From sequence record PQ511150.1: DNA of 64,000 nt, one strand, 5' to 3'. The notes beneath the pieces are model-generated. The model searched no databases and had not been told where the DNA came from. It saw only the letters and a program-made list of their open reading frames with translations. Every line of letters begins with the position of its first letter. Position 1 is the stretch's first letter. Position numbers and translations under genes: made by a program. Positions 22,950 to 24,512 of this stretch are shown piece after piece. This stretch comes from Escherichia phage NHEP29.

Positions 22950-23520
22950 AAAAGTTTCGGATTTGTTCCCAATTCAGAGAACGAAGATTATTACGAGAGT
23001 ATTGAATTACTTCAATACCAGCTTGTTTAAGAATGTCTGCCCAATTTTCAGGAGATCGGTCATATAATTCTGCATATACAACCTTTTTAATACCTGACTG
23101 CGTAATAGCTTTAGTGCAATCAGGACACGGAGAAAGCGTAGTATATAACGTAGCACCTTCAATAGAATTACCTTTACGAGCTGCAAACAAAATTGCATTC
23201 AATTCTGCATGGATTTCATTATTAGCAGACCATGCACTATGAGCGGCCCGATGTTCTTTAGCCAAAACAAAATTATCTGCCCGTCCAAATGCTGTAGTGC
23301 CTTCTTTATGCCCAGCAACGATGACCGGGCTTGGTTTATTCTTCAACCAACCGTTTTCGGATGCATGTTCACAACAGTTAACACCACCGGCCGGGCTACC
23401 GTTATACCCAGTAGAAATAATGCGCCCATCTTTTTCAATGACGGCACCAACTTTCCATGAACAACATTTTGATTCTTGAGAAATCAGATATGCAATCTGA
23501 AGGTATGTGCTAGCTTTCAT
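22939..23520 (-). CDS. cd: dCMP deaminase
   Basis: 193 aa; zinc-binding deaminase motifs HAELNAI and SPCPDC; same length as T4 Cd. Confidence 0.9.
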   Translation of the reverse strand: MKASTYLQIAYLISQESKCCSWKVGAVIEKDGRIISTGYNGSPAGGVNCCEHASENGWLKNKPSPVIVAGHKEGTTAFGRADNFVLAKEHRAAHSAWSANNEIHAELNAILFAARKGNSIEGATLYTTLSPCPDCTKAITQSGIKKVVYAELYDRSPENWADILKQAGIEVIQYSRNNLRSLNWEQIRNFCGE

Positions 23521-24512
23521 TATTGAACCTTATTAATATAAGTTAACAGCTCTTTAGTTTGTTCCCAACTGATGCACGCATCGGTAACGGAAACGCCATA
23601 GGACATATTATCAGAAATTTTTTGATTTCCTTCATGTAGGAATGATTCTATCATAATTCCTTTGACCAAATCATTAGCTGCTAAATTTTTACCAATACCA
23701 ATTTGATTGCTATAATGCCCATCAGCGTTTGCATGGCTACAGTCAACCATTACATAATGATTCAGACCTACTGCCCTTGCTTTGTTAGAAGCTTCTTGAA
23801 TATCAGAAGAATGATAGTTCGGGCCGTTGGTCCCGCCACGCAATACGATATGCGTATTCTGATTACCTTCAGCTTCAACAATGCCTACAGTACCATCGAC
23901 GTCCATACCCATATACCGATGAGGCCAGGCGGCACTATACATCGCGTCTGTAGCTACTTTAATAGAACCATTGGTTGCGTTCTTGAAGCCTACGCACATC
24001 GGTAGACCTGAAGCAATTTCACGATGTGTCTGACTTTCAGTCGTACGGGCGCCAATAGCAACCCATGAGAAAATACCAGAAAGATACTTAATCGTGAATG
24101 GGTCTAATACTTCAGTTGCTAATGGAAGTCCCATACGTAGAAGTTTACGACACAATGTTCGTGCAACTATAAGACCGTGGTTCATATCAAAACTTCCGTC
24201 AAGATATGGATCATTTACAAGACCTTTCCAACCTACGGTAGTTCGAGGCTTTTCAAAATAAACGCGCATCACTAACAGAACATTAGGAAGACGAGTTTGA
24301 AGTTCAGCCAGACGTTTGCCGTATTCAACAGCAGCAATAGGGTCATGAATTGAACAAGGACCTACAACAATAAGTTTGCGTGGGTCTTCACCGTTCATAA
24401 TCGAATTAACTTGTTCGCGATGAGAAGCCACTTGTGATGCGTAAGCTTCCGACAAAGGAATAATCTCAGCCAGTTCTTTTGGAGAAATAAGTTTTCCGAC
24501 GACAGGTAACAT
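23520..24512 (-). CDS. 3-deoxy-D-arabino-heptulosonate 7-phosphate (DAHP) synthase, AroG-like
   Basis: 330 aa; motifs KPRTTVGWKGL and IGARTTESQTHREIASGL match type I-alpha DAHP synthases such as E. coli AroG. Confidence 0.85.
   Translation of the reverse strand: MLPVVGKLISPKELAEIIPLSEAYASQVASHREQVNSIMNGEDPRKLIVVGPCSIHDPIAAVEYGKRLAELQTRLPNVLLVMRVYFEKPRTTVGWKGLVNDPYLDGSFDMNHGLIVARTLCRKLLRMGLPLATEVLDPFTIKYLSGIFSWVAIGARTTESQTHREIASGLPMCVGFKNATNGSIKVATDAMYSAAWPHRYMGMDVDGTVGIVEAEGNQNTHIVLRGGTNGPNYHSSDIQEASNKARAVGLNHYVMVDCSHANADGHYSNQIGIGKNLAANDLVKGIMIESFLHEGNQKISDNMSYGVSVTDACISWEQTKELLTYINKVQ

Follow-up and report, generated by a model that had tools for sequence, protein, structure and literature searches.

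The window analysed here is a stretch of 64,000 nucleotides from the genome of Escherichia phage NHEP29 (PQ511150.1). The window shares 97–98% identity with many genomes of Mosigvirus, NHEP11 and Bas46/ChristianSchoenbein among them. Pfam and PHROG profile matches revealed a T4-type rIII-31-31.1-cd...pseT block, in which a gene for a type I-alpha DAHP synthase (DAHPS) lies between cd, the dCMP deaminase gene, and the resident homologue of cd.2 (Table 1). The stop codon of DAHPS (23522..23520) and the start codon of cd (23520..23518) overlap as TAATG, so that the two genes are joined with no spacer. On the other side, the DAHPS start (24512) is separated from the cd.2 stop (24633) by 120 bp, and this gap is occupied by a 41-aa ORF that is annotated in relatives and constitutes a PHROG family of its own. 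The same interval between cd and pseT holds only the small ORFs cd.1–cd.5 in the T4 record. These features had been outlined in an initial annotation of the window, whose 330-aa ORF was borne out exactly by the ORF coordinates; its further statements that the gene adjoins cd without a spacer, that a 120-bp gap with a possible 41-aa ORF lies upstream, and that T4 has only small cd.x ORFs at this place also agreed with our results.

Table 1. Coordinates of the genes, signals and junctions at the DAHPS locus of the NHEP29 window.
Feature	Coordinates	Strand	Evidence
Type I-alpha DAHP synthase gene	23520..24512 (stop codon included)	minus	330-aa ORF, profile matches, catalytic residues
cd (dCMP deaminase), downstream neighbour, 1-nt overlap	22939..23520	minus	Pfam PF00383, phrog_174
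Resident cd.2 homologue (DUF7320, 78 aa), upstream neighbour	24633..24869	minus	Pfam DUF7320, E = 1e-35; 97% identity to RB69 cd.2
41-aa ORF	24521..24646	minus	phrog_15876; weak match to C-half of DUF7320
Shine-Dalgarno AAGGA, 5 nt 5' of the DAHPS ATG, overlapping the stop of the 41-aa ORF	24518..24522	minus	read from sequence
Sigma-70-type promoter TTTACA-17 nt-TACTAT with extended TG, between cd.3 and cd.2	24899..24927	minus	promoter scan
1094-bp segment absent from RB69 (3' half of donor-type cd.2 plus DAHPS)	~23524..24617	minus	blastn against RB69
Left-junction microhomology TAATGAGAGCTA	24624..24635	minus	junction sequences
Right-junction microhomology TAATGAAAGCTA (DAHPS stop / cd start)	23511..23522	minus	junction sequences

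The DAHPS protein matched the Pfam family PF00793 (DAHP_synth_1) at E = 5e-75 with 252 bits (cutoff 25.5), and it passed both the NCBIfam equivalog TIGR00034 for aroFGH (427.7 bits, cutoff 173.2) and the model NF009395 (455 bits, cutoff 343). The AroG-specific model NF006723 was not passed (363 bits, cutoff 568), nor was the AroH-specific NCBIfam model (386, cutoff 463). Pairwise identities were 51% with E. coli AroF, 48% with AroG and 44% with AroH, and the best match in the PDB was again E. coli AroF (6AGM, E = 5e-105, 51% over residues 8–327). Identity at this level (51%) to AroF, for which structures have been solved, is sufficient to assign the fold of the phage enzyme. The order of the three identities, together with the profile scores, indicates a type I-alpha enzyme that is AroF-like and not AroG-like. 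Assignment to the AroG subtype was ruled out by the NF006723 score and by Gly202, located where AroG has Ser at position 211; work on yeast Aro3/Aro4 has reportedly given this residue a role in discriminating between Phe and Tyr. A KDO8P synthase (KdsA) or another branch of PF00793 was likewise ruled out, since TIGR00034 was passed, no KdsA model was among the NCBIfam matches at E ≤ 0.01, and the protein carries the motif KPRT. KdsA has a KANRS-type motif in its place. The initial annotation, which regarded the enzyme as AroG-like and not KDO8P-synthase-like, was consequently right on the second point and is corrected to AroF-like on the first.

The phage enzyme has the same metal tetrad and PEP/E4P residues as Tyr-sensitive E. 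coli AroF (PDB 6AGM/6AGL), and it retains two residues of the AroF Tyr site, P148 and G212, the latter being phage G202, where the isozymes of the Phe and Trp types have Ser. It differs from AroF in length (330 against 356 aa), in the absence of approximately 10 N-terminal residues, including the N8 equivalent and the region around I11, in a 4–5-residue deletion in the loop at AroG ~289–293, and in having Ile, Lys, Pro and Tyr at P151, Q152, S181 and F210 of AroF. The residues of the Tyr site are thus mostly absent or substituted even though AroF is the closest paralogue, and the subtype of the phage DAHPS, as far as its residues predict it, should read AroF-like or unassigned. The fold and catalytic residues are also common to the phage enzyme and Phe-sensitive E. 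coli AroG, from which it is set apart by Gly instead of Ser at position 211. The view that this is a full-length type I-alpha enzyme can be kept for the type, as judged by TIGR00034, but not for the length, as about 8–10 N-terminal residues and a loop of 4–5 residues are missing.

Catalytic residues were examined in an alignment of 14 phage-clade proteins with 18 cellular type I-alpha enzymes of wide phylogenetic range, comprising 329 columns. The metal tetrad C53, H260, E289 and D311 (AroG C61, H268, E302 and D326) was present in the window protein and in 14 of 14 phage-clade sequences. Equally conserved were all 11 PEP/E4P residues, namely R83, K88, P89, R90 and T91 (the last four forming KPRT), E134, G154, A155, R156, K177 and R225, which correspond to R92, K97-P98-R99-T100, E143, G163-A164-R165, K186 and R234 of AroG. 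The gene is under purifying selection, as a dN/dS of ~0.15–0.19 was obtained against the copies of Kanagawavirus, Marfavirus, Winklervirus and Bragavirus, a value that is approximate since dS is near saturation; only 4 synonymous and 0 nonsynonymous differences separate it from the Bas46 copy. The loss of catalytic or metal-binding residues, which the initial annotation had named as the observation that would speak against its proposal, was hence not found, and the intact residues and low dN/dS rule out a pseudo-enzyme. The phage DAHPS is probably competent to condense PEP and erythrose-4-phosphate into DAHP, as predicted from these residues.

A tblastn search detected homologues in 212 phage records, of which 139 reached at least 95% identity and 100 at least 99%. 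Each of the 11 top-ranked records listed, among them O157 typing phages 3 and 6, p000v and Bas46, encodes a 100% identical protein, and names such as aroF, DAHP synthase I alpha and aldolase are used for it in the phage records. It also matched phrog_5045 (phospho-2-dehydro-3-deoxyheptonate aldolase, AMG category) at E = 3e-182, with residues 1–330 covering profile positions 8–337 of 341. The gene lies in the pseT–cd interval in at least five Straboviridae genera (Mosigvirus, Marfavirus, Bragavirus, Kanagawavirus and Winklervirus), which are represented in phrog_5045; the order pseT-...-cd.2-DAHPS-(0–2 small ORFs)-cd was observed in Marfavirus PWKp18, Bragavirus phiP4-3, Kanagawavirus Entb_45 and Winklervirus X20. 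The gene in the window belongs to this family, sits at the same location and differs from it in nothing substantive, the Mosigvirus copy being set apart only by the truncated donor-type cd.2 that lies upstream as the 41-aa ORF. All phage copies formed one clade on a simple NJ tree drawn without support values; this single clade and the common pseT–cd position suggest an old acquisition within the enterobacterial Straboviridae. A search of 5.8 billion proteins returned the phage clade (319–343 aa, 55–98% identical), followed by cellular enzymes of 341–388 aa at ~50–55% identity from Enterobacterales, Planctomycetota, Pontiella and others of many phyla, and no recent cellular donor was identifiable in it. 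The closest DNA match in 5,426 complete E. coli genomes was 120 nt at 74% identity, which together with the ~50–55% identity of the cellular proteins rules out host contamination or a recent capture from E. coli.

The gene is accordingly already known as a widely annotated accessory gene of Straboviridae and is not particular to the NHEP29 genome. It was noted as ORF 64, a putative auxiliary metabolic gene, in the phiC120 genome paper (PMC8022965), and a role in aromatic amino acids was hypothesised for the Kanagawavirus KLB31 copy in a Klebsiella phage paper (PMC11845039). Full-text literature searches for functional work on any phage copy, whether enzymology, transcript or knockout, found passing mentions only.

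In the genus Mosigvirus the gene is an accessory one. The DAHPS gene is absent from RB69, whose cd.2 directly adjoins cd, and such an uninterrupted cd.2–cd junction was seen in 11 Mosigvirus-level records against 139 carriers. At least nine Mosigvirus-level records besides RB69 are without the gene. The non-carriers of this genus include moha and JK42 besides RB69, and T4 and JS98-like phages are also without the gene. These absences indicate that the DAHPS gene is dispensable. When the window was compared with RB69 by blastn, 93.5% identity was found up to position 24618 and 96.1% from 23523 onward, and the two alignments overlapped by 19 nt in RB69. The 1094-bp insert so delimited is flanked at both ends by TAATGA(A/G)AGCTA and opens mid-way through a cd.2-like coding sequence. 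This accounts for the make-up of the 41-aa ORF, whose first 6 codons are out-of-frame codons from the 3' end of resident cd.2 and whose remaining codons, ~35 in number, align with the C-terminal half of cd.2 of the donor type. The donor-type part had alignment scores of 71 (20/39 identical) with Kanagawavirus cd.2, 60 with Marfavirus cd.2 and 30 with the adjacent resident cd.2, and no convincing Shine-Dalgarno sequence for the ORF was found upstream of it. As the insert begins inside a cd.2 that is closer to those of Kanagawavirus and Marfavirus than to the resident one, the 41-aa ORF is interpreted as a chimeric scar of recombination, and we rejected it as an independent new gene. Such a scar indicates that a different T4-like lineage was the donor of the cassette, the recipient evidently being a genome like that of RB69, with one crossover at the start of cd and the second at a microhomology inside the donor cd.2. 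The RB69 state could also arise in the opposite direction, by deletion between the two repeats, but this leaves the divergent half-copy of cd.2 unexplained. The insert was also more conserved than its flanks in a single comparison, that with Bas46: 4 mismatches were counted in 1095 nt, versus 94.5% identity for cd and 97.8% for pseT.

The comparison with RB69 also bears on what the enzyme may be for. The initial annotation had raised, as a more speculative option, an unusual sugar or nucleotide modification route, and Mosigvirus DNA does contain arabinosylated dC, for which the arabinose precursor is not yet defined (PMC13390438). The enzyme could thus act on arabinose-5-phosphate or another phospho-sugar for DNA-sugar modification, or could serve as a sink for PEP and erythrose-4-phosphate by which host metabolism is rewired. 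RB69, however, has the same mono- and di-arabinosyl modification without the gene, and the candidate arabinosylation genes are located in the nrdD–rIIA region and not at the DAHPS locus (PMC13390438). The E4P-binding KPRT motif, the score for the aroFGH equivalog and the lack of a KdsA match also stand against a different sugar substrate. Moreover, carriers of the gene are found in several genera, and other Mosigvirus-level records are without it, so that its presence, judged by genus, does not track arabinosylation. A role in arabinosyl-dC modification was ruled out as unlikely on the first two grounds, the modification route is disfavoured as a whole, and we consider a sink or phospho-sugar function highly improbable.

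As to expression, the sigma-70-type promoter found between cd.3 and cd.2 is conserved in sequence with T4 and RB69 at the place where the T4 record annotates the early promoter Pe133295. A motif scan for a minus-strand terminator, a late promoter (TATAAATA) or a MotA box detected none between this promoter and DAHPS, whose start is preceded at 5 nt by the good Shine-Dalgarno sequence AAGGA. The promoter is therefore the probable source of a cd.2-orf41-DAHPS-cd transcript. By homology to T4, DAHPS would be transcribed early together with cd.

Another reading is that the benefit lies in chorismate-derived cofactors, chiefly pABA-derived folate for the phage thymidylate synthase, DHFR and modified-dCMP pathway, or quinones. 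T4-type phages depend on folate-requiring enzymes. A cofactor role would account for the position of the gene among nucleotide-precursor genes, as it adjoins cd and as nrdAB, td and frd lie within ~10 kb in the near-identical Bas46 genome, and cofactor-type end products have also been suggested in the literature (PMC11845039). The cd–pseT interval is, however, a known plastic region containing many small unrelated ORFs, which makes the adjacency to cd weak evidence. In addition, no phage pab or fol biosynthesis genes adjoin DAHPS, and none of the host enzymes of the shikimate, pab and fol routes could be limiting. We hold the cofactor role to be decidedly unlikely, and the support for it, as for the PEP/E4P sink, is circumstantial.

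The comparison of the phage enzymes with cellular ones was most informative at the allosteric site. In type I-alpha enzymes, an N-terminal extension and the β6a/6b insertion together make up the site for the aromatic amino acid. The initial annotation had proposed that E. coli AroG, AroF and AroH be aligned with the phage protein, and this comparison revealed substitutions at the inhibitor site next to intact catalytic residues. In the 32-sequence alignment, only 8–10 residues precede the conserved anchor proline in the phage proteins, compared with 16–28 in the 18 cellular enzymes, and the equivalents of AroG D6/D7 and AroF N8 are missing. The β6a/6b region of the phage DAHPS aligns gap-free, the N-terminal extension is shortened, and four pocket residues are replaced throughout the clade; a 4–5-residue deletion near AroG 289–293 is also common to the phage clade. 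Strict separation of phage and cellular sequences occurred at only 6 of the 329 columns, which are P150I, Q151K, L156I, S180P, F209Y and T223A in AroG numbering. Four of them (P150I, Q151K, S180P and F209Y) fall within a 15-position list of the inhibitor site drawn up a priori (Fisher one-sided p = 4e-5), and the other two, L156I and T223A, are adjacent to listed positions in the sequence. Of the 15 listed positions, 10, including all four discriminating ones, were confirmed by a published study (PMC9529685).

These positions are known for their effect on regulation. In AroG, P150L is fully resistant to Phe feedback, S180F and F209A/S are also resistant, Gln151 takes part in inhibition, and the side chains of S180/S181 contact the main chain of the inhibitor (PMC9529685); in AroF, deletion of Ile11 yields a feedback-resistant enzyme (PMC10729320). 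The phage enzyme is naturally non-Pro at 150 and non-Ser at 180, two classic positions of AroG feedback-resistant alleles, though with Ile and Pro where the laboratory alleles have Leu and Phe. The loss of N-terminal residues and the replacement of inhibitor-contacting residues lead to the prediction that Phe, Tyr and Trp no longer inhibit, and we infer that the phage enzymes would not be inhibited by any of the three in the canonical manner. As every phage copy is altered in the feedback pocket, the activity is probably unchecked during infection. The suggestion that a phage copy could bypass host feedback inhibition thereby gains support at the sequence level from the short N-terminus and the invariant substitutions at AroG P150, Q151, S180 and F209.

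The altered pocket can also be read in another way, in which the enzyme is active and still allosteric, while its remodelled site would bind some other effector, such as chorismate, prephenate or a metabolite of the nucleotide pathway. In that case the flux into shikimate would answer to a signal relevant to the phage and not to aromatic amino acids. What gives this weight is that 12 of the 15 pocket positions are invariant in the phage clade against a background of 123 of 329 columns (p = 7e-4), across genera that are ~55–77% identical overall. A site more conserved than the protein average may be re-purposed and not dead, and such invariance fits a working pocket, whether for another effector or for the dimer interface, better than an abandoned one. 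The substitutions also bring in a positive charge (Lys/Arg) and the hydroxyl of a Tyr, and an anionic ligand would fit such a site. On the other hand, the pocket positions are highly conserved in the cellular enzymes as well and may therefore reflect structural constraints of the dimer interface, and the loss of the N-terminal segment removes a part of the site, which is not a re-shaping of it. We regard binding of another effector as possible, though on the whole unlikely. The more specific proposal, in which the residues Val-Phe-Ile-Lys-Pro-Tyr, invariant across genera, form a pocket re-tooled to sense a phage-relevant metabolite and so define a virus-specific regulatory class of DAHP synthase, seems to us quite doubtful; if it held, shikimate flux would be tied to the infection programme.

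We thus return to feedback deregulation, and consider it fairly probable that the gene encodes an active DAHP synthase that is expressed early, escapes feedback regulation and supplies the shikimate pathway. DAHPS would be transcribed early from the conserved cd.3–cd.2 promoter, together with cd.2 and cd. In the enzymes of the phage clade, the N-terminal residues by which the inhibitor site is completed across the dimer are gone, and the key inhibitor-contacting residues are replaced. Carbon flow into the shikimate pathway could then be kept up after the host transcription shut-off, whatever the state of the aromatic amino-acid pool, and Phe, Tyr and Trp, along with other chorismate products, might be sustained for phage protein synthesis. 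Some T-even phages have a classical requirement for tryptophan as an adsorption cofactor; a link to this requirement was considered and found to be unsupported.

The comparative result turns a vague AMG label into a sharp question, that is, whether this protein is a natural feedback-resistant DAHP synthase. The presence of carriers and non-carriers in one genus (most Mosigvirus versus RB69, moha and JK42) offers natural near-isogenic comparators. If the proposed role is true, the phage gene would provide a ready-made deregulated enzyme for the bioproduction of aromatic compounds, and it would clearly exemplify how a virulent phage of enterobacteria can override an allosteric checkpoint in the amino-acid biosynthesis of its host.

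The 1094-bp insert that carries the DAHP synthase gene was delimited by comparing the window with RB69, a relative lacking this gene, and a TAATGA(A/G)AGCTA microhomology was found at both of its edges (see the table below). In the 41-aa ORF upstream of the DAHP synthase gene, the tail of the resident cd.2, read out of frame, is fused with the C-terminal half of another T4-like lineage's cd.2; from its sequence, we interpret this ORF as a chimeric recombination scar. This reading notwithstanding, the ORF has a PHROG family of its own (phrog_15876), and it is annotated as a gene in the records of relatives.

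In a single pairwise comparison, with the DAHP synthase-carrying Bas46 alone (L011), identity was 99.6–100% across the insert (window 23523..24617), against 94.5% for the flanking cd (22939..23520), 94.7% for the 74-aa/cd.4 ORFs, and 97.8% for pseT (flank compared, 25214..26509). The closer match of the insert in this one comparison is consistent with either mosaic exchange or a younger cassette that has spread recently. The 99-aa ORF, at whose position RB69 has another small ORF (ORF231c), is a further variable spot of the same plastic interval. Its Bas46 counterpart, bas46_0056, is annotated as "putative homing endonuclease". On the other side, the WYL_2 match of the gp31.1 homologue denotes an Sm-like SH3 β-barrel family; this homologue is called "tail fibers protein" in some phage records, such that annotation is inconsistent between genomes.

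Coordinates of the features (window positions unless another record is named)
Feature	Location	Strand	Remark
gp31.1 homologue	22641..22949	-	Downstream of cd; Pfam WYL_2
Insert junctions	24624..24635 and 23511..23522	-	
41-aa ORF	24521..24646	-	
99-aa ORF	26697..26996	-	Just upstream of pseT region
Distant DAHP synthase homologue	Aeromonas phage HJ05, 3899..5062		79 kb; locus L008
Distant homologues	MT837410, MT838377		Human faecal phage contigs
Distant homologues	Acinetobacter phage MD-2021a contigs		

In addition to their N-terminal truncation, 13 of the 14 phage-clade DAHP synthases in alignment A3, which also includes cellular type I-alpha enzymes, lack 4–5 residues of a surface loop near AroG ~289–293; the exception, P0020, retains the longer loop. 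Homologues of 35–48% identity were also observed in non-T4-like phages or phage-labelled contigs, the majority of them labelled hypothetical or left without annotation, and they probably represent independent acquisitions.
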